This document shows positions 12,975-39,098 of a stretch of 64,000 bases of DNA, in pieces. Every line of letters begins with the position of its first letter. Within the stretch, counting starts at the first letter, position 1. This DNA comes from a virus. The stretch is taken from the IMG/VR virus record IMGVR_UViG_3300012928_000001, positions 1-64,000 of that record; one strand, written 5' to 3'. A program made the translations under genes and the position numbers. The notes beneath the pieces were generated by a model. That model was not told where the DNA came from. It searched no databases and saw nothing but the letters and a program-made list of their open reading frames with translations.

Positions 12975-14268
12975 TACTCACCCGAGCTTCGCTATCGTGG
13001 CGGTCCGCGTGACCGCGTCGGAAGCATCAATCATCCAAGACTTACTGGCCCAACGTGGCAAGGATTTTGAACCGCTCGCGCGCAAGTTCGCCGCTGCAAT
13101 GACGCAGTGCATTTTCACTCGCGCCATGGATCGGGACTATCACAACGGACTCGACGAGCGCCGCAAATGGCTTGTCCGTGTCCCGCTGGACAGCAACCGC
13201 AAGCCCGGTGATTTCGTGAACGTCTCGCGCCGAGACTCCACTACATCATCGGTCAAGCTCGGTCCCATGATCCGCAAGGGCCACCGCTACGCCTACCACA
13301 CCACGGACCGCAAGCGAGCCGAGGGCGAGCCCAAGGCCGAACGGAAATACCGCTACTCGGAAGTGTGACTCACGCCCCCATTCGGCCTACAGAGAGATAC
13401 CTCCAATGACCGCTCACCACTACACGCCCGATCCCTCGATCCTCATCATCACCGGCCCGCAGTTCCGAAAGCAGACACGCGCCGAGCAGGTCGCCCAGTA
13501 TGACGCACAGTTGCGATTCATCATGGAGGCCATCGCCAACACTCCGACCACGCCGACAAAGCCCACCGACGTGATCGAGATCCGCGTGCTACTCACGCGG
13601 AAGCTCTTCACCGCCGTGCATGACGTGCTGAATCGGAACGGGTGGGAAGTCCACGAGGGCGAGCCCAACCCCGCGGGTCACCGCGGTGACGGTACATGGC
13701 CGATCATGCTGCGCCCGTCGATCGTGCGCGGGCCCAGCACGCGCACACAGCCCGTAGACACCGTCGAGAGCCCGCCGGCCGGCTGGGCGCCGCCCCCCGA
13801 CTGGATCCGCACTCGGGACGAAGCGCGCGCCCGTCTCGTGGCCGCCACGGAGGGCGAGGAATGAGCGGCGCGTGTCAGGCCTACTACGCCCCGATCACCA
13901 TCGGACCGCGTACCGGCGTGGTCATCGTGAGCGCCCCCGACAAGCCCACCGCGCGGCGCATGATCGCGGAGCACGTGCGGGATAACGTGCCCATTGAATC
14001 GCGCTACATCTCAGGCAAAGGTCTCTACATGGGGCCCAGCATGAACGCGATCCAACCCGTCAACGGCGACCCCGGTAAAGTCGTCTACTTCGATTCGGGG
14101 GTGTCCTGATGAGCCTCGCCGACGCCAAAGTGGGGGACCAGCTTGTCTGGGTTGCTGGGTTCCGCCGCCATCGCACAATCGTCACGGTCACTCGCGTCAC
14201 GGCCACACAGATCATCGTCGGGACGCGCAACAGGGTAGACCGGATCCGCAAGCGCAACGGTAGCGTCA

Positions 14269-16323
14269 TTGGCCGGAAAGGCTATCACTGCCCTACTGTC
14301 CGTGTGCCCCGCGAGGGAGAGCTCGACGAGATTCGAGCGGAGGAACGCAGGTCCGAAGGGCTGCGGCGAATCGTCGACTTCTTCGCCTACGCGGACGAGC
14401 GCCAACATATTTCGATCGAAGATCTCGACAAGATCTGGGAGATCATCAGTGGCTATCAAAAGCCCGATCCTGACAGTTGATCGAGTGGTCGCGGACATCT
14501 TCGTCCAAGATTACGGCGACCGCGAACGCATCATCAACTGGCTTCGAGGATTCTACACAAGCGAAAAAGGCTCGCTACTGACAACGCGGGAACGTGTGTC
14601 TGTCGGGATTGAGTATCTGATTGCTAATGGGTGCATCGAGACCGGTGATCTAGTGTACCTCAACGATCACGACGCATACCGAAACTGGTCCATCACTGAG
14701 TTCGGTCAGCTAGTCTATGAGTGCGTCGAGACCATCGAAAGCATACGGAAAACATGAGCGCGCCTGATCCCGATCTCGTCGACCTGTCCGCGGCGATCGT
14801 CCTCGATGTCCGAAACCCAACCTGGGAAATCGGCTATCGGGCATGGTGGCTAATGCAGCTCGCCAATCACGACGGGGGCGTGCCCGAGGACCTGGCCGGC
14901 TATCTCGATATGCTCAAACGCAAGCGCACCCAAGATTGGGGCGACTTGCAAAGGATGTCGGAGTGGCGGCCCTATGAGTTCAAGCGCTCCCAAGCCTGCC
15001 ACGCGATGCGTCAACTACAGCTCGCCGACGCGGCTCGATGGGAGCGCAACACGTGGCTCGCAACTCCACTCACTGAGCCGGTGCTAGATCGGTGCATGCT
15101 GATCCTGTCGATCAAGAAAGCCACGCACACATGATTACCCCAACACACGAGATGGTCCTCATTAGTGAGGCCGTTCATCGCCTCACAGAGAAGACACCGG
15201 ACGCGCCTATCCTGCTTTTCTGGACCGTGCTCATTGGCGAGTTTCGGGTGATCTCGAATGTCTCCCACTGGACCACCATCACGCACGAAGCGTTGCGGCC
15301 GGTGATTGGCTACACCGACTTTTTCGGGGAGCGTCTAACGGCCTACCAAGTCCGCGCAATGGATCACATCACGCGGATCAACTTCCTCGGCTCACTCGAC
15401 GCGATGCGGGTCATCGAGCGAATCCCCCACCGACGCAGCGGCGACCCCCTCGACTCCCCGCCCCAGGAGGCATGGACCATCACGCGAATCGGGGAGCGGG
15501 TCATCGAGGCAATCGAGACAATCCAGGCCATCCGCAACGATGCCAAGGTCACGGCCAAAGCCGGCACCCCGGAGTGGGCTGTCCAAGCCGCCCGCGTAGC
15601 CCAGCAACGCCAACGCGACTACTCCGTGGCCTATGCCACCCGGGAAGAGCTGGCCCAAGCTAGCGCGGATGCCCTCGGCCAACTATTCAAAAAGTACTAC
15701 CACACAGCGATCAAACTCTAATGCTGAATCACGATCAGATCATCGTTGTGCTGACTGCTAACGACATCTGGGCACGTCATTACGCGCACTGGATTCACAC
15801 AGTCGTTCGGTTCCGTGTTTGGTACGCGATCAAAAATCTCATCCCGGTGTACCACGATCGGAATGTCCGAGGACTCGACGCGGCGAGCTTCCGCCCCCGC
15901 CATTCGCTGCCTACACGCAATGAGCATACTCTCGCCGACGACGCTTTCAAGACTATCGCCGACCTGCGCAAAGCTGGCCTGATCAAGATCGTACACATTG
16001 ATGATGAGCCCTTCTATGCAGTGACCGACCTGTGTAAGCAGGTCGCCGCCACGCTAAAGACCATCGACGCAATCAAGCGCGACACCCGTCGCGCCGAAGC
16101 TGACAAGCTCTGCGAGAGCATCACCATCGAAGTGGACGGCGAGGCCATCGCGTATCAGCTCTCGGACCTACAGCGACAACTACAGTTGCCGGAGAATCAG
16201 AGCGCCAATATGCAGACCATCCTGAATCAGACCATCCTGAATCAGACCGCACACCTGAAAGCACTAGAGCCCCGCTCAGCTCGACTCGAACAGTTCATTG
16301 CCGACTTGGAGAAACCCGAATGA
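14269..16323 (+). CDS. Four tandem winged-helix-like paralogs (?-14757, 14754-15134, 15131-15721, 15721-16323)
   Basis: Each has a W/Y-x-[IAV]-T-x-x-(G) wing motif followed by an ETI-x-[AS]I-[RK]-like helix; overlapping start/stop codons. Start of the first is uncertain. Confidence 0.6.
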
Positions 16324-18192: not shown

Positions 18193-19062
18193 ATGAGTGC
18201 CGATCCCAAGACGACGAGCGCCCCGCCTGTCCAAGCCGCACAACTCGGCCCGGTATCCGTGGGGCCGTCGCCCGACAAAGGGCTACTTTGCCAACCTGAC
18301 GATCATGCACAGTCCGATGTGTGCGAACGCGATGGGTGTGAAGTCGAAGAGACCGATTCGAACACACTCGCGGATGACTGGGATGGGGGTACCGACTGCC
18401 CCGCATGGGTGCTCGAAGGCGAAGCGAAGTACCTACGCGGCGAGCTCTCTTCGCAAGGCGCCGTCGCGCAGTTCGTCGACCGCCCGCGGACCACGGTCTC
18501 GTGGTGGGCTACCAAACGCGAGTGGACTACCCGCCGTGCGGCGATCAAGGAAGCGGCTGCCGAGCGCCTGCGCAAGAGCATGGACAGCGCGGCCACTCAG
18601 GATTTGGTCGACAGCTTCGAGGCCATCGACCACGACACGGTCAAGGCCGGTCGCTTCGCTGCCCGGGTCACGCTCACATTCGTGACGCAGGTCGCCCAAG
18701 ATCAAGCGAGGCACGTGCGCCAGAAAAAGCGCGGCGTGTACATCCCCCCGGCGTTCCCTTCGAGCTTCCTCGCCATCGCCGAGCGGGCCGACGCGCTGCG
18801 CCCTCAGACCTCCGAGGAGAGCGAGCAAAAGACCGCGCTCGACGAGATGGCCGAGGCCCTGAACCCTCGCCGTCGTGGTCGCACCGCGCTGGCCCTGCGC
18901 ATGCGCGAGGAGGAGGCCAAGCGAGCTCGCGCCGCCGGCATGATGCCGCCCACGGTGAAAGTCGAGCTCGCCACGGTCGCAAGCGAGGCGGAGATCGCCG
19001 AGGAGAGGCCCGACGACAAGGGGCCGGCTCCAGAGCTCGACAAAGATCGTGTGACTCACTAG
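18193..19062 (+). CDS. Probable terminase small subunit
   Basis: HTH pattern YLRGELSSQGAVAQFVDRPRTTVSWWATKREWTTRR followed by long helices, as in TerS N-terminal domains. Confidence 0.5.
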   Translation: MSADPKTTSAPPVQAAQLGPVSVGPSPDKGLLCQPDDHAQSDVCERDGCEVEETDSNTLADDWDGGTDCPAWVLEGEAKYLRGELSSQGAVAQFVDRPRTTVSWWATKREWTTRRAAIKEAAAERLRKSMDSAATQDLVDSFEAIDHDTVKAGRFAARVTLTFVTQVAQDQARHVRQKKRGVYIPPAFPSSFLAIAERADALRPQTSEESEQKTALDEMAEALNPRRRGRTALALRMREEEAKRARAAGMMPPTVKVELATVASEAEIAEERPDDKGPAPELDKDRVTH

Positions 19063-20907: not shown

Positions 20908-21646
20908 GGAACACACCATGTCCAACTACCACCCCACGACCGCCGCCGAGATCTTCCTACCCACCCTGCGCGACCCGACCATGGGCCTAGTGGCCACCAT
21001 GGTCGAGCTCGACCAGCTCATGCGTCGCCGCCCCGACATGCTGCGCACCGACGCCCCCCTGCCGGCGGTCCCCTTCGCCGACCTGCGCGTCGTCTGGGTC
21101 ACCCCCGACGACATCACCACGACCAAGGAGCGGACCCCCGGGGGCAAGACCACGCGGACCGTCTCCATCCCCATCGGCAAGAGCGACTCTCACCCCCGCG
21201 TCGTCGAGCTCCAGACCTTCTCAAACGAGATGACCCTCAACCCCATGACCGCGGTGCTGTGGAGCACGGCCGAGGAGATCATCAAGGCCGTGTCCGCCGA
21301 GCTGTATACCGTGCTCGTCGAGAGCGACCCGGAGCACGCCAACGACTGGCTCACCCAGTTCGAGGGCATCAACCTGCGGCACGAGCAGGGCAAGCCCGTG
21401 ACCACCCTCGTGCTGTGCCTCGACTCGCTCGACATCCTGTGGGGGACCAAGGGCAAGGAGGCAGGCCCCCCGCTCGCGGTCATGACCCGCACGGCGCTCA
21501 GCATCGGGCTGGCCTGAGTAGCTCATGCCCGAGCTACCCTGCCCCCGCGACGATCCGTTACCGCACCGACCCGGGCCCCCGGAGCACACCGCTCCGGGGG
21601 CTTTGTTGATCTGTGACTGACATCCCAGATTGGCCTACAGTAGATT

Positions 21647-22021: not shown

Positions 22022-22469
22022 TCCGCGCTCGAACACAAAGCCCCCGGAGTGGTCATGCTCCGGGGGCTTTGTTGATCTGTGACTCGCACTCCCGATTGGC
22101 CTACAGTAGATCGATGCACTCGCTTGCTGTCAGCACCGGACCCAACGACGTCCACCCCGAGCACGCTCGACAGATCATGCGCCACCGCAAGAGTCTGCCC
22201 CGCATGAGCTCCGCCGACATGCACACGGCCTGGGGACTCGTCGATGAGCTCGCCTGCACATACCGTGCGGTCGATACAGTCCACGCGATGCGCATCGCAA
22301 AGGTGCTCGTCGACTCGCGCAACATCGGCAAGGCGGGCTTGCGGACGATGCAAAAGCTTCGGCCAGCGATGCACGCGATCCGGTGGACGGGCAAAGCACA
22401 GCACCCGGCGCCGCCCGTCCACGGCAACCCGGGGATGATCCTCGCCCTCCGCCGCGCCGGGTGGCTCAA

Positions 22470-25691: not shown

Positions 25692-25894
25692 TGCGGTTCT
25701 CTGAGGCTGAGGTGAGGGGTGCGGGAGCACTGCTCGGCGCTATCGCGTGTGCGTGTATCGCCGCGCATGCGTTCGAGAGTGGCGAATGGTCGTCTGGGAT
25801 CAACGCGACATTCGTGTGCCTGCTCTACGGTGCCTGCGCGGTGGCGTGGCATCGCAAGCTGTGACTCGCACACACGATTGGCCTACGGTAGATC

Positions 25895-28800
25895 GTGTCG
25901 CGGTCACCACCTGATCCAATCGGACAAGCGCTCGGGTTCATGGCCGTGTGGAACGGCCTTTTGTTCTCGTGGCGCCCGCAGCCCATGAACAAGTGGGCGG
26001 AGTTGGTGGCTGCTCCGCCCCTGCCATTGGACATCGATTTCACAACGCAACAGTGGGACCGGTGGGTGCATAATCACACCACTGGGATCTACATCGCGTT
26101 GACGGTGGTCGACACCATGCACCTGTGTACCGAGAAAATCGACTACGGCAGGTACGGCCCCAACGTCTGGCGATTGTCTGATAGGGGAATCGAGTTGGTA
26201 CGGGCCAACAATCTAGACGTGATTGCGGCGATCAAGCTGGACGGACGAGTCGGTAACAAGCCCCACTATGTTTGGGATTCGCGCTTGCAGTCATACGAGC
26301 TTTCACGGAGTGAACCGAAAGATGGATGATCACGGATACGAATGCGGAACGTGTGGCTACGTGCCCACCTACGAAGAGCTCCACAACGGCACGTGCCCGC
26401 AGTGCGAGCTGAATCGACAGATTGATCGCGCACGCGAGGAGACCGAGAATGGAGACTGAGCCCGACGAGGAAATCGTTACGGTCGCCATGCCGGCGAGCA
26501 TGGCCCGACTCGTGGCGTCGCTACTACTAGCATTCGACCTGTACGAGGCGGCGGAGGGCTTCGCAGAAATGCAACGGCCGTGCATCTTCGTGAGCGCAGA
26601 CGTTTCGCCAGACCCGGATACAGAGTGTAGGGAATGGTTTATTCGCGCTCCCAAGAATACATTCGCGGTCGGTGACTTGGTCATGGTCCGTCGACGGGAT
26701 GGAAGCAACCCGGTGATCGTGCAGCTCACCGGCCTAGTGCGCACGCGTCGGCTGTACGAATGGTACACATTCGAGAACGTCTGAGATGGCAAACACAACC
26801 GAAGTCAAGTGCATCGAGACCCTTACGCACAACGACGCTCTATTTGATCGTGAAGTGCTGCGCAAGCTGTCGGGATTCCAGCTGACCGCTACTGCGCTCA
26901 CGGCCTGCATGGATGAAGAGTTCCTAGACGCATTCTCCGCCGATGCTGTGATCGATGCTTTGGGCAACCTGCGCGTCCTCGGTCTGGTCCGACGTCGCGG
27001 TGACGAATACGTCGTGACGAAAAAGGGCAAGGCGGTGCTCGAGGTTGTGAACACGCTCTGTGCGGTGCGAAGCGCCGCCGAGACCTTGCCTGGGGGCTCG
27101 CTGTGAACGTGGGTCGCGGCGATCCTCCGGGGCTTTGGCGTCGGATCAGCAGTACCCCGGTCGCGCTTGGGTTGCTGACTCCCGCTGATCGGTATTTCAC
27201 ATTTCCACGGACCGGTGAGCTACCTGCTCACGCCGGGGAGCTGCTAAAGTGCGCCCGAGATCCGTGGGATTGCGTTATCTGGCGTCGCGAGGAGAGTGGG
27301 GAGCTGCTAAAGTGCGCCCGAGATCCGTGGGATTGCGTTATCTGGCGTCGCGAGGAGAGTGGGGCCTATAACGTTTTGGTCTTCTTTGGCGACACGGAGC
27401 TCGTTCCTAGGTCGGCGCTGCGTTTGGCTCAGTGCGCCGAGCCTGATGTTTACGAGCTCACCGACGAAGCGCGGGCCGACGCCCTCGCGCAAAACTTCGA
27501 TGTCCTCGCCGCGGTTTTTCTTTCAGATGGCCTGTGACTCGCACCGCCGACCGGGCTACAGTAGATTGTCGCCGGTCGAGCAAACTGCGACCGTGGCCGA
27601 CCTACCTCCTAGGCTTGGGTTGGGTTCCAGCGGCCACGTAAGTCTCGGATTTCGATCCTCCTTCCAACACGACGCGTCCGAGACTAGAACGCTCCCGGGA
27701 ATGGTCCCGGGAGCGTTCACCTTTTGAGGGGACCAAAACAAATGAACGCGTACACCATCCAAGAAATGATCTCATCTGCCGAAGTGCTGCAAGGGCTCAT
27801 GGTCACGCCTGGACGTGTCCTGCATTTGTGCACAGCCGGAATGGTCTCTGGCGAGCTTTGGGATTGTGCCCCGGTTCAACTTCGTCTCAACGACAGAACG
27901 TCTCTCGGTCAGGCCAGCCAAGCCATCGGGGGTGCTCCCTCCAAATGGACCTACATGGGGCCGGTGAGCGCGACTGTACTCGATGTGCTCGGCTTTTCTC
28001 CCGAGTCTGCGCCTCCCGGATTTGTCGCGGTGGAAAGCACGGTCCACGATATCGGACGCACCCGATTTCAGGGCCCGCTGTATGTGCTCACGGATGCTGG
28101 CCGACAACGTGCGCAAGAGCAGAACTTCGATACACTCGCGGCCGTGTTCCTAGCTTAGGCCTGTGACCCGCACGCGCTTTCGGCCTACAGTAAAGCGCAT
28201 GCGGACCATCATCCAAAAGCACACGATCATCGAGGTTCCCGGCAGGCCCTACGATCCGCACACGCTCAACGCGGAGATGATCGAGCGGTTCGCCGCGGAT
28301 CACAGCGACGACCCTGCACCGCTCTGGAAGCTGCGCATGATCGCCGGGTTCCCCATCGTGCTGGAGTGGCTCGCTAGGGTGCTCTCGCCAATCGTGGGCG
28401 CGTCGTGGCTGTACTTGATGGCGTATCCGCTGCTCCCGTGGTGGCTCGCGGGGGGCATGTTCGCGTTCGCAGCATGGCCGACCCTCACGGCGCACGTCGG
28501 GCTCATGGGCGAGCTTCGATCTCTCAAGACCATTCGCTACAGGACCCCTGAGGATGACGAAAAGTACGATCTATGACCGTCTTTCAGCGCTGTTTTCGGA
28601 GGTTCACGATATCACCGCTGAAAGCGTAGACCTGTCGCACCCTTCTCCACGGGTTAGCGACCAACAACTCGTGCTCGGGATGCTGGCTTTGCCTGATACG
28701 GTGCTGCTAATGCTCGACACGCCGAAGCTGGACACCTGCCCTATTCGGCAAGAGATCGAGCCCACGTCGATGAGAGGCCCTTGGGGTTACGTGGACATCG

Positions 28801-30234
28801 CTAGGATTCCGCGCACGCTCGCGGAGCGCCTTGTCGATAGCGGGTACTTTCGAGGCAAAGAAGGCTTCGGGCGCTACCGGTTGCGCGCTAGCGTGCGCAG
28901 GTATTGTCGCCAGTATAACTACGATGTCCTCGCGTCGATCCGCTTGCAGGACCACCCCGATGGATGAGAAGAGCATCGCCCTCGGGCTACTCGCTAATCC
29001 GGCGCATCAGATTTTTGCGGGGTTCAGTTGGTGGCTCATCGCAAACGTCGAAACGAATACCACAGTTATGCGCATGTCCGATAGCCTATTTAAGGTACTT
29101 GGCGCCGACGGTTGGCTTGAGCGTGACGAGGAATACCGCGAAGTTTGGCGGCTCGCGCCGGAGCGGCGGGCCGAGCTCGTCGAGCAAAATCTTGACGTAC
29201 TGGCCACAGTTCACCTGATGCAGGATGTCGATTAGTGGATCATCTCAAATACCGGGGGTTCATGATAGCGCTTGGCCTACTAGCCAAGGGTGGGGGTGGG
29301 CGTATACGGTGCTCCGGTTCCGGCGATGTCGTGATTCTTCAACCGGCCGAAACGGGGGTCCACTGCCGTGCGCTCGCTCTCGCTACACGTGAAGTGTTTG
29401 CCGATCTGTGCGATAGCGGTTGCTTGTCTGAACTCGTCGCTAAACCTGGGGTGTACGTAATCACGGAGCATGGTAAGAAGCTGGCGCGCGAGCTCAATGC
29501 TGACATCGTCGCATTGCTCGCCAAGGAGTCGGCCGGCCAAACTATGCTCGAGTGCGGCGGACGTGCTTGGCCGCCGGAGTCGGAGGATCCGCCGGAGCCG
29601 GATCCCGATTTTCGGTGATCGCCTGTGACTCCCTCCGCCGTTCGGCCTACAGTACATCGAGGGCGGCGCGGAACCTGTCTGCTCTGCGCTGACCTCACGG
29701 GGGTGAGAGTGTCTCTCTCTCTCTCTTTCTCTCACTGCCCAACCGAGGGCCCGGGACGCCCCTCCCGGGCCCTCACCTATTTGAGCCATGCACGATCTCA
29801 GCCCAGCCATGATTCAGCAGCTCTCAGTTGCCTTCGAAAAGCCGCCGCTTTTGGAGATAGGTACTGATTCAATCAAGGCATGGGAAAAGCTGGTCGAACT
29901 TGGCTACTTGCTCCCGATCTATGCCCCGGCAAAGTGGCCCGACGAGGAGTTTCTCGCGGTCGAGCTTTGCGAGGGCGGGGTGTGGGAAAATCATGTCCAG
30001 CTGCGCCCGACCATGCGGGCCGAACGGTGGCGCGATTCGATCGAGACGGTCGCCGCAATCGCCCTCATGGACCGCCAACCCTATCGCGTACTGGCAAAGA
30101 CCGCGCGCTTTGGGATTGACTACGGCACCGCGGAGATGCGGGCTCTCGCGCACGCGAGCGCATCGATCCGCGCGCAAATCGAGATGACCCATGAGAGGCT
30201 TCGCCAGTTCGCTGATCGGTGGGGGAAGCTGTGA
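25895..30234 (+). CDS. Cluster of winged-helix-like paralogs (25895-26329, 26786-27106, 27103-27537, 27742-28158, 28554-28967, 28960-29235, 29235-29618, 29788-30234) with interspersed ORFs
   Basis: Mostly Y/W-x-[LIV]-[TS]-x-x-[GA] followed by N-[FLYA]-D-[VTI]-[LIV]-A; 26786 and 29788 have the ET/NT-type helix. Confidence 0.6.
27235..27360 (+). repeat. Exact 63-bp in-frame tandem duplication
   Basis: 27235-27297 equals 27298-27360; bounded by GGGG microhomology; duplicates GELLKCARDPWDCVIWRREES. Confidence 0.95.
27567..27726 (+). ncRNA. Candidate sRNA 1 (anti-Shine-Dalgarno loops)
   Basis: Class-2 promoter at 27533, no credible ORF, stems CGTGGCCG/CGGCCACG and AGTCTCGGA/TCCGAGACT, 14-bp terminator stem + ACCTTTTG. 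Confidence 0.65.
29659..29783 (+). ncRNA. Candidate sRNA 2 (antisense to class-1 early leaders)
   Basis: Class-2 promoter at 29624, three hairpins, last one GAGGGCCCGGGA/TCCCGGGCCCTC + ACCTATTTG; loop regions contain CTGTCTGCT and GTCTCTCTC. Confidence 0.7.
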
Positions 30235-32645: not shown

Positions 32646-32678
32646 AAAGAGCCGCCCACGGATGGGCGGCTCTTTTTT
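32646..32678 (+). terminator. Intrinsic terminator
   Basis: AAAGAGCCGCCC-ACGGAT-GGGCGGCTCTTT-TTT, directly upstream of a class-2 promoter. Confidence 0.8.
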
Positions 32679-37837: not shown

Positions 37838-37842
37838 TCCGA

Positions 37843-37870
37843 AGGGCCCGCGAGAGCGGGCCCTTTTTCT
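37843..37870 (+). terminator. Intrinsic terminator
   Basis: AGGGCCCGC-GAGA-GCGGGCCCT-TTTT; a near-identical hairpin follows the tail tube gene (62705-62733). Confidence 0.8.
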
Positions 37871-38177: not shown

Positions 38178-38211
38178 CTGTGACTCGCAGGCCCGAGCGG
38201 CCTACAGTAGG

Positions 38212-38346
38212 GTGCCCGGATGGTCCGGGCATGCGCGCCGAGTTCAAAAAACTTTGGCGAGTGGAGGGCTCGGCGCGTTTCGGGGAGAAGTCGCAAGACA
38301 CCCAACGAACCCCGGAGATCGGTGGATCTCCGGGGTTCACCTTTTG
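38212..38346 (+). ncRNA. Candidate sRNA 3
   Basis: Class-2 promoter at 38179; stems GTGCCCGGA/TCCGGGCAT and GCGCGCCGAG/CTCGGCGCGT; terminator GAACCCCGGAGATC/GATCTCCGGGGTTC + ACCTTTTG. Confidence 0.6.
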
Positions 38347-38363
38347 TGTGCTACCATGATTAG

Positions 38364-39098
38364 ATGCGCTACGTAGGCGGCAAGACTCGGATCGCAAAAG
38401 AGCTCACCCCGTTCATCCTCGCGGCGGCCAAGAAAGCTGGCACATCGACGATCATCGAGCCCTTTTGCGGGGGCCTGGGCATGACGTGCGCACTCGTGAA
38501 AGCGTCGCCGTTCGTTCGCGTCGAGGCCAGTGATTACGCGCCCGGACTCATCACGCTCTATCGCAGCATCCGCGCCGGATGGAAGCCGCCCACCGATCTA
38601 GACAAAGCGCAGTGGGCGGAGCTCAAAAAGCGCGCGGGCGAAGATCACCGCCTAGTTGCATTCGCGGGGTTCGGGTGCAGCTTCAATGGGATCTACTTTT
38701 GCGGGTACGGGACCGAAAAGTTCCCCGGACAGGCCGCGCGAGGGCTCCGCAAAAAGCTCGACATCTGCACGCCCAAGCGGGTCACCCTAGAGTCCCGCAG
38801 CTATGCGGACATCGAGGTCACCGGCCCGTGTGTGATCTACTGCGATCCGCCCTATCGTGGCTGTGACCGCGACTCCTATCGCGCCCTGCACGGCACCCCA
38901 CACGAGCGATTCGACAGCGACGCGTTTTGGGAGTGGGCTCGCGTGTGCGCGGACAAGGGCGCGCATGTGCTCGTGAGCGAGTACGTAGGCCCGGACTGGG
39001 CGCGCGTACTGTGGCAGCGCGAGATCGTCTCCATGACCGGGAATCACAACGGTAAGGGCGACAAGGCAACCGAGAGGTTGTTTTACGTCGCGCCTTGA
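38364..39098 (+). CDS. DNA adenine methyltransferase (Dam/D12 class)
   Basis: MRYVGGK, EPFCGG, IYCDPPY, VLVSEY motifs. Confidence 0.9.
   Translation: MRYVGGKTRIAKELTPFILAAAKKAGTSTIIEPFCGGLGMTCALVKASPFVRVEASDYAPGLITLYRSIRAGWKPPTDLDKAQWAELKKRAGEDHRLVAFAGFGCSFNGIYFCGYGTEKFPGQAARGLRKKLDICTPKRVTLESRSYADIEVTGPCVIYCDPPYRGCDRDSYRALHGTPHERFDSDAFWEWARVCADKGAHVLVSEYVGPDWARVLWQREIVSMTGNHNGKGDKATERLFYVAP

Follow-up and report, generated by a model that had tools for sequence, protein, structure and literature searches.

The element described here lies on the plus strand of a virus record of 105,163 bp that carries direct terminal repeats. The stretch of DNA that we analysed (hereafter the window) corresponds to its first 64 kb. 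An upstream operon spans 25860–27537, and the class-2 promoter found at its end is followed by a series of hairpins and then by a gene without assigned family (Table 1). The C-terminus of the product of this downstream gene is paralogous to that of the upstream gene 27103–27537, and in both flanking paralogues the C-terminal block is followed by the same promoter. A perfect 63-bp duplication is located near the element, which indicates that the region rearranges.

The phage is a high-GC myovirus that encodes a tail sheath, a portal and a large terminase. The nearest copies of the large terminase are found in genomes of Myxococcus, Corallococcus, Polyangia and 'Deltaproteobacteria' at 36–45% identity, and the host is therefore probably a member of the Myxococcota. 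The terminase relatives, at 45% identity or less, are not accompanied by the promoter motif, and searches with the tail sheath and with a 757-residue protein returned no close relative. In three Myxococcota genomes the 3' tail of the 16S rRNA is the canonical GGAUCACCUCCUU. To our knowledge, no regulatory RNA has been described from a phage of this phylum.

Table 1 Features of the element and its sister modules (window positions).
Feature	Start	End	Strand	Description
Class-2 promoter	27533	27562	+	TGTGAC-N18-TACAGT, 0 mismatches in either hexamer
Predicted transcription start (G)	27568		+	Placed from the start-codon position in 22 leaderless copies
Hairpin H1 (5' end)	27568	27591	+	Present in MFE and centroid folds
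Hairpin H2	27592	27638	+	8-bp outer stem round a small inner hairpin; ACCUCCU (27604–27610) pairs with UGGGUUGGGU
Hairpin H3	27641	27685	+	10-bp stem 27641–50/27676–85; 25-nt loop with GAUCCUCCUU (27654–63)
Terminator-like hairpin T	27687	27725	+	Stem-loop 27687–27718, perfect 14 bp, loop AUGG, then ACCUUUU
SD-like GAGGGG of downstream gene	27726	27731	+	10 nt ahead of its ATG
Downstream gene, 138 aa, no family	27742	28158	+	No own promoter; next promoter at 28162
Sister module at 29624	29624	29784	+	Class-2 promoter; two hairpins; T of 12 bp with ACCUAUUUG; gene 29788–30234 behind it has no promoter
Sister module at 38179	38179	38346	+	Class-2 promoter; three hairpins; T of 14 bp with ACCUUUUG; methylase 38364–39098 behind it

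The preliminary description of this DNA had placed a class-2 promoter ahead of a candidate small RNA, and for the promoter the sequence bears this out: it matches both hexamers perfectly, and its position weight matrix score (38.7 bits) falls within the range of the family (27.7–50.5 bits). Against 1.6 copies expected, the window has 22 copies of the motif TGTGAC-N18-TAC(A/G)GT, 21 of them on the plus strand. The genome as a whole contains about 29 credible copies, in which CGCA and GGCC flanks are conserved as well. In 22 copies an ATG or GTG start lies 6–9 nt past TACRGT, most often 6 nt, and the genes behind them are therefore leaderless. This agrees, for the first genes behind the promoters, with the earlier claim that class-2 genes are leaderless and that class-1 leaders lack GGAGG, since the latter carry GAAAGCAGACA instead. 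At the expected +1 of the unit starting at 27568, on the other hand, stands GUC, which is not a start codon, and the unit thus has no leaderless start.

Transcription from the class-2 promoters probably relies on a sigma factor of the phage itself, as judged from a phage protein with sigma-70 region 2 (Sigma70_r2) encoded at genome positions 88243–88941. Because this gene sits behind an early-type promoter region, its position suggests that class-2 promoters would come into use after the early phase.

Since the promoter precedes about 158 bases of hairpins, including a terminator-like one, and not a gene, the element is probably a small non-coding RNA. The statement that it contains no credible open reading frame needs qualification, as a frame of 53 codons, from TTG 27566 to TGA 27727, is in fact open; yet 49% of shuffles contain an open run as long as this one, which places its length at chance level, and the TTG precedes the predicted +1 by 2 nt. 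The codon score of this frame (−0.17) tops those of the other two frames and exceeds most non-coding frames (mean −0.81), but it lies under the 5th percentile of coding windows (mean +0.48). A translated small protein gene would, moreover, have to cross the 14-bp hairpin, and the tail conserved among the sister modules is read in different frames, with all three frames open in the module at 38179, so that the similarity of the modules is one of nucleotides. With a chance-level length and an intermediate codon score, we rejected the small-protein reading as unsupported and regard it as extremely improbable. The evidence leans towards a non-coding element, and we treat it as such.

As had been proposed, hairpins follow the promoter. 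The RNA starting at 27568 is predicted to fold into H1–H3 and T with a minimum free energy of −76 to −77 kcal/mol, compared to a shuffle mean of −54 (z −4.3 to −4.55), and only 0–1 of 200 shuffles folded as stably. The 25-nt loop of H3 is the sole large single-stranded region of this RNA. The fold of the sister modules is similarly stable, with z scores of −4.47 for the module at 29624 and −5.62 for the module at 38179.

The last hairpin, T, had been called a strong terminator. This holds for its perfect 14-bp stem, which at −28.5 kcal/mol ranks with the strongest perfect hairpins of the 105-kb genome, but not for its tail, ACCUUUUG, in which the U run has just four residues (UUUU) and is set off from the stem by ACC. 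With this short and offset run, T is absent from a standard terminator scan whose criterion is a minimum of 5 T within 8 nt, 0–2 nt from the stem. On the plus strand the only hairpins followed by the tail TCACCT(A)TTTG are the T hairpins of the three modules, and the tail also follows a hairpin at a conventional minus-strand gene end near 85097. T is probably a real but leaky terminator, as judged from its sequence.

Three modules of the same design are found in the phage genome, namely the element itself and the two sister modules. They have in common the order of promoter, hairpins, T, TCACCT(A)TTTG and promoter-less gene, while the sequence shared among them is confined to the flanks of T. 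In both sister modules the class-2 promoter likewise has no start codon at +1. The gene behind the module at 29624 has no assigned function; that behind the module at 38179 encodes a Dam-like, D12-class adenine methylase and is followed by the large terminase gene. Because none of the genes directly behind the three modules has a promoter of its own, their transcription depends on read-through of T, and for the element this means that 27742–28158 would be transcribed only through T. A fourth class-2 promoter drives an array of tRNA-like RNAs, which indicates that promoters of this class do make stable RNAs.

This arrangement raises the possibility that the element acts in cis only, as a leader with an attenuator or a conditional antitermination gate in the manner of lambda PR'-tR', which sets the level or timing of downstream expression and yields the short RNA as a by-product. 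Consistent with this, each of the three modules has a promoter-less gene next to it, expression of the methylase and the large terminase behind the module at 38179 is a necessity, and the suboptimal T tails, with ACC ahead of UUUU, suit partial read-through. The 5' strand of H1 (27569–81) can also pair with the 5' arm of T (27691–27700) as a possible antiterminator. However, this H1–T pairing gains only −3.9 kcal/mol, which makes a riboswitch-like alternative fold weak, and all alternative pairings in the element range from −3.9 to −8.8 kcal/mol, as chance predicts for a GC-rich RNA. Rfam gave no match at gathering level in the window, and thus no riboswitch or leader family; in E-value mode, 26000–29500 returned only a chance-level 2dG-II hit of 17.9 bits (gathering threshold 60). 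A Pfam scan of about 90 phage proteins, all larger than the small open reading frames, gave no antiterminator family among the families listed, which were all but three. Hairpins in the late region likewise precede promoter-less genes, so leaky terminators are ordinary in this phage and no elaborate leader is needed to account for one. A leader acting only in cis would also leave unexplained the complementarity, described below, between two loops of the module at 29624 and the early leaders. Taken together, we consider a purely cis-acting leader rather unlikely, yet a serious rival of the reading favoured below.

We also considered that T merely insulates, blocking read-through from the upstream operon, with the promoter a leftover of the tandem duplication that gave rise to the flanking paralogues and H1–H3 an incidental fold devoid of function. 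The shared C-terminal block and promoter of the flanking paralogues and the rearrangement indicated by the nearby duplication are in line with this, as is the outcome of searches that yielded neither target nor homologue. On the other hand, both the order of elements and the T tail recur in three independent modules, and the stability of H2 and H3 goes well beyond that of shuffles. For insulation alone this phage puts the terminator ahead of the promoter: the ordinary terminators at 21575, 22035, 32646 and 37842 directly precede promoters, unlike the T hairpins of the modules. The insulator explanation is, in our judgement, unlikely, though it too is a serious rival.

The searches referred to above covered several levels. 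No homologue of the DNA 27100–28200 was found among 50,697 phage records, and a 24-mer taken from H3 had no exact match elsewhere in IMG/VR. The downstream protein has no homologue in IMG/VR and matched only itself among 5.8 billion proteins. The class-2 promoter pattern found no relative in IMG/VR and metagenome contigs, and the class-1 leader pattern gave only 75 single chance matches in the same collections. No tRNA or tmRNA was detected in the window by ARAGORN or Rfam. A search of the literature on phage anti-SD small RNAs and on leaderless transcription in Myxococcus returned nothing relevant.

Evidence that a module of this design may act in trans comes from the module at 29624. The loop of its first hairpin holds UGUCUGCU, which is complementary to AGCAGACA, a motif found immediately ahead of the ATG in the leaders of 15 early genes, and the 19-nt CU-repeat loop of its second hairpin holds GUCUCUCUC, the complement of GAGAGAGAC, which occurs in the leader-hairpin loop in 14 copies. 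These matches were identified by exact-word complementarity; RNAduplex target scans were non-discriminating, and by that measure the two loops score no better than shuffles. Since two exposed loops complement motifs present in 14–15 early leaders, at least this one module looks trans-acting. By analogy this supports a trans role for our element as well, although exact words revealed no repeated complementarity to the early-leader array in the loops of the element or of the module at 38179.

If the element acts in trans, the H3 loop would be the part to do so. The preliminary description had counted two anti-SD sequences, of which one remains accessible in the predicted fold: CCUCC at 27657–61, in the H3 loop, has a mean unpaired probability of 0.95, whereas ACCUCCU at 27604–10 forms a strand of the inner H2 hairpin and is mostly paired (0.19). 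There are 89 copies of CCTCC on the plus strand of the 105-kb genome, and at least two copies occur in 1.0% of genome windows of the size of the element. Dinucleotide shuffles of the element contain at least two copies in 4.75% of cases and an exposed copy in 4%. The CCTCC content of the element is thus mildly unusual and, for a motif picked after the sequence had been seen, suggestive only.

To look for partners of the loop, we compared it with the initiation regions of predicted phage genes, 157 in all, and its pairing was no better than that of shuffled loops. Pairing in cis with the GAGGGG of the downstream gene ranked 74th among these 157 regions, and masking of the downstream SD by the H3 loop was rejected on this basis. 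Exact-word and BLAST searches of the genome for targets of the element gave chance-level matches only. Two individual matches were likewise judged to be chance, namely 27630–47 against 95290–95307 (17 of 18 positions complementary, E 0.055) and a 13-nt identity between the 5' end of the element and 59582–94.

The exposed loop nevertheless invites the idea, put forward in the preliminary description, of a global SD mask, in which the RNA mimics the 3' tail of the 16S rRNA and shifts translation from SD-led host mRNAs to leaderless or non-SD phage mRNAs. In its favour, the exposed GAUCCUCCUU resembles GAUCACCUCCUU, the tail being canonical in the three Myxococcota genomes, an SD is missing from the first genes behind promoters of either class, 1 or 2, and the module at 29624 offers a possible precedent, by analogy, for matching the initiation motif of a whole class of mRNAs. 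However, the RNA presents only one accessible motif, and the phage is itself not SD-free. An SD-like core (GGAG, GAGG or AGGA at −18 to −4) precedes 37 of 156 predicted phage genes, an approximate figure of about 24% given the rough gene starts, compared to 10–19 genes (6–12%) for control windows. One of these 37 is the downstream gene itself, with its GAGGGG, and a global mask would therefore strike phage genes too. A single RNA would also have to titrate thousands of mRNAs, and the statistics in its support are weak and post hoc, as 4% of shuffles expose a CCUCC too. On the host side, SD usage was tested crudely on 200 kb of Corallococcus sequence; the value obtained, 26% compared to 18% for the control, was uninformative. 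We regard global SD masking as very improbable.

A broader version of this idea would make the three modules a set of small RNAs dependent on the phage sigma factor, each of which silences one class of initiation signal. The module at 29624 would act on early leaders and our element on SD-led, mainly host, mRNAs through mimicry of the 16S tail, so that translation is reprogrammed towards leaderless phage messages. This scheme, too, is in our estimation highly improbable.

The reading that we tentatively favour, as a reasonable possibility, is that the element specifies a non-coding RNA of the middle phase, about 158 nt in length, whose leaky, promoter-proximal terminator gates the downstream gene, and which possibly acts in trans via its exposed CCUCCUUCC loop. 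We infer from the sequence that RNA polymerase with the phage-encoded sigma factor would initiate at about 27568, transcribe three hairpins and mostly halt at 27687–27725, thereby releasing a structured RNA. A minority of polymerases would read through T and provide the sole transcription that reaches 27742–28158. The released RNA may then base-pair in trans via the 25-nt loop of H3, with its CCUCCUUCC core predicted to pair with purine-rich sequence at the ribosome-binding sites of particular mRNAs, either of the host or of the phage. On this reading, the element is best regarded as a plausible, uncharacterised small RNA.

If transcribed as predicted, it would be one of three small RNAs in a phage lineage that has no sequenced relatives and probably infects Myxococcota, and in a phage that largely dispenses with SD sequences when translation starts. 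The set of modules would then represent a compact system in which to see how a phage orders its gene expression by means of RNAs, a sigma factor of its own and promoter-proximal terminators that leak. Should the idea of SD mimicry prove true, it would constitute a new route to the takeover of host translation.

Several known systems help to place these proposals. At lambda PR'-tR' a 194-nt '6S' transcript is made and Q acts in antitermination. The modules resemble it in that the promoter is predicted to give a short, structured, non-coding RNA ending at a putative terminator, with promoter-less genes directly behind, among them, behind the module at 38179, the terminase. They differ from it in comprising three small units and not one late switch, the element gating a single small gene, and in having no sequence relation; no Q-like protein was identified among the Pfam families listed, nor was a Q-binding element or pause signal identified.

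With regard to action in trans, the CI RNA of P4 and the c4 RNA of P1/P7 are phage small RNAs that are cut or terminated from the leader of the operon they precede, and their exposed loops act on complementary sites that include ribosome-binding sites. The element is predicted to be likewise a leader-derived RNA with an exposed loop, although the CI and c4 targets are known and lie in the same transcript, whereas no complementary site was found for the element in the phage. RsaE/RoxS of Firmicutes and 6C of Actinobacteria carry several conserved C-rich loops, pair with SD regions and have defined regulons. The element would share with them an unpaired C/U-rich loop on a terminator-ended RNA of 100–200 nt, with a proposed seed against G-rich ribosome-binding sites; unlike them, its RNA has one exposed CCUCC, no Rfam match and no relatives that we could find.

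Finally, two systems bear on the outcome proposed for the element. T4 RegB is an endoribonuclease that acts on the phage's own early mRNAs via GGAG-type SD sequences; discrimination among mRNAs by their SD is also what has been proposed for the element, except that RegB is a protein nuclease and not an RNA decoy. SreA and SreB of Listeria are terminated riboswitch leaders, with a known ligand-binding aptamer, that act in trans. The element, in contrast, matches no aptamer family and its alternative pairing is weak, but what we propose for it is a similar design, in which a single module would serve both as a gate in cis and as the source of a small RNA acting in trans.

The sister module e2, which shares the design of the element (class-2 promoter, hairpins, terminator-like hairpin, promoter-less gene), is, judged from its sequence, a strong candidate source of an RNA with which the phage would silence its own early genes. 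One of its exposed loops, UGUCUGCU, is the exact complement of AGCAGACA, a motif present in 15 copies in the early-gene leaders, and the other, GUCUCUCUC, is the exact complement of the leader motif GAGAGAGAC (14 copies). These leaders form the early array, in which the preliminary description had proposed hammerhead ribozymes. Our Rfam search over window positions 1-64,000 returned no family at the gathering score, and the ribozymes are thus not confirmed at that threshold.

Coordinates of features in the window and in the remainder of the phage genome
Feature	Coordinates	Strand	Remark
Canonical terminator	window 21575-21601		A-tract, hairpin, T-tract
Canonical terminator	window 22035-22072		A-tract, hairpin, T-tract
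Canonical terminator	window 32646-32675		A-tract, hairpin, T-tract
Canonical terminator	window 37842-37865		A-tract, hairpin, T-tract
Sister module e2, two exposed loops	window 29659-29782		complementary to two early-gene-leader motifs
Sister module e3	window 38179-38346		directly 5' of Dam-like methylase and large terminase
Gene-free stretch, ~700 nt	genome 79551-80296 (outside window)	minus	3' of class-2 promoter at 80296
Phage protein with sigma-70 region 2	genome 88243-88941 (outside window)		36.2 bits

No other promoter was recognised for the methylase and terminase genes behind the second sister module, e3. This module is open in all three reading frames over its length, and the TAG that closes one of them adjoins the methylase ATG. 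The four canonical terminators all lie 2-10 nt 5' of a class-2 promoter, an order of terminator and promoter that is the reverse of the one in the three RNA modules. Class-2 promoters are likely read by the phage protein with sigma-70 region 2; its own gene is preceded by an early promoter region of the TGCACAAC type.

The genes flanking the element (27103-27537 and 27742-28158) have in common a C-terminal block of 26 residues (62% identity), and each carries a class-2 promoter at its end. This suggests that the two genes arose by tandem duplication and that the RNA element was placed into it. The upstream gene additionally holds a perfect in-frame 63-bp tandem duplication (window 27235-27364, 2.1 copies, 100% match), by which 21 residues are repeated; the second copy is either of recent origin or an artefact of the assembly. 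Throughout the genome most predicted genes lack a Shine-Dalgarno sequence, and many starts lie only a few nucleotides past the preceding stop (for example CTGAGNCC-ATG), suggesting that translational coupling or re-initiation is the main internal start mechanism.

Outside the window, motifs resembling the T-arm of tRNAs (GGUUCGAAUCC, GGUUCAAAUCC) occur several times in the gene-free stretch, together with acceptor-like stems; neither ARAGORN nor Rfam recognised them. The first transcribed bases at its promoter (TTGTCGTCG) are similar to those of the element (TTGTCGCCG).

A 123-aa protein (window 14109-14480) matches PF24203, the 'Phage ProQ C-terminal-like domain' of Pfam, over its full length with 33.5 bits (cut-off 27 bits). 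Since the main RNA-binding part of ProQ is its N-terminal FinO domain, this match alone does not demonstrate RNA binding. Of the genes scanned as a group between window positions 18319 and 46856, one encodes a protein with a match to the HAD domain of the RNA repair proteins called 'Swiss Army Knife' (PF18143, E 2.3e-21).
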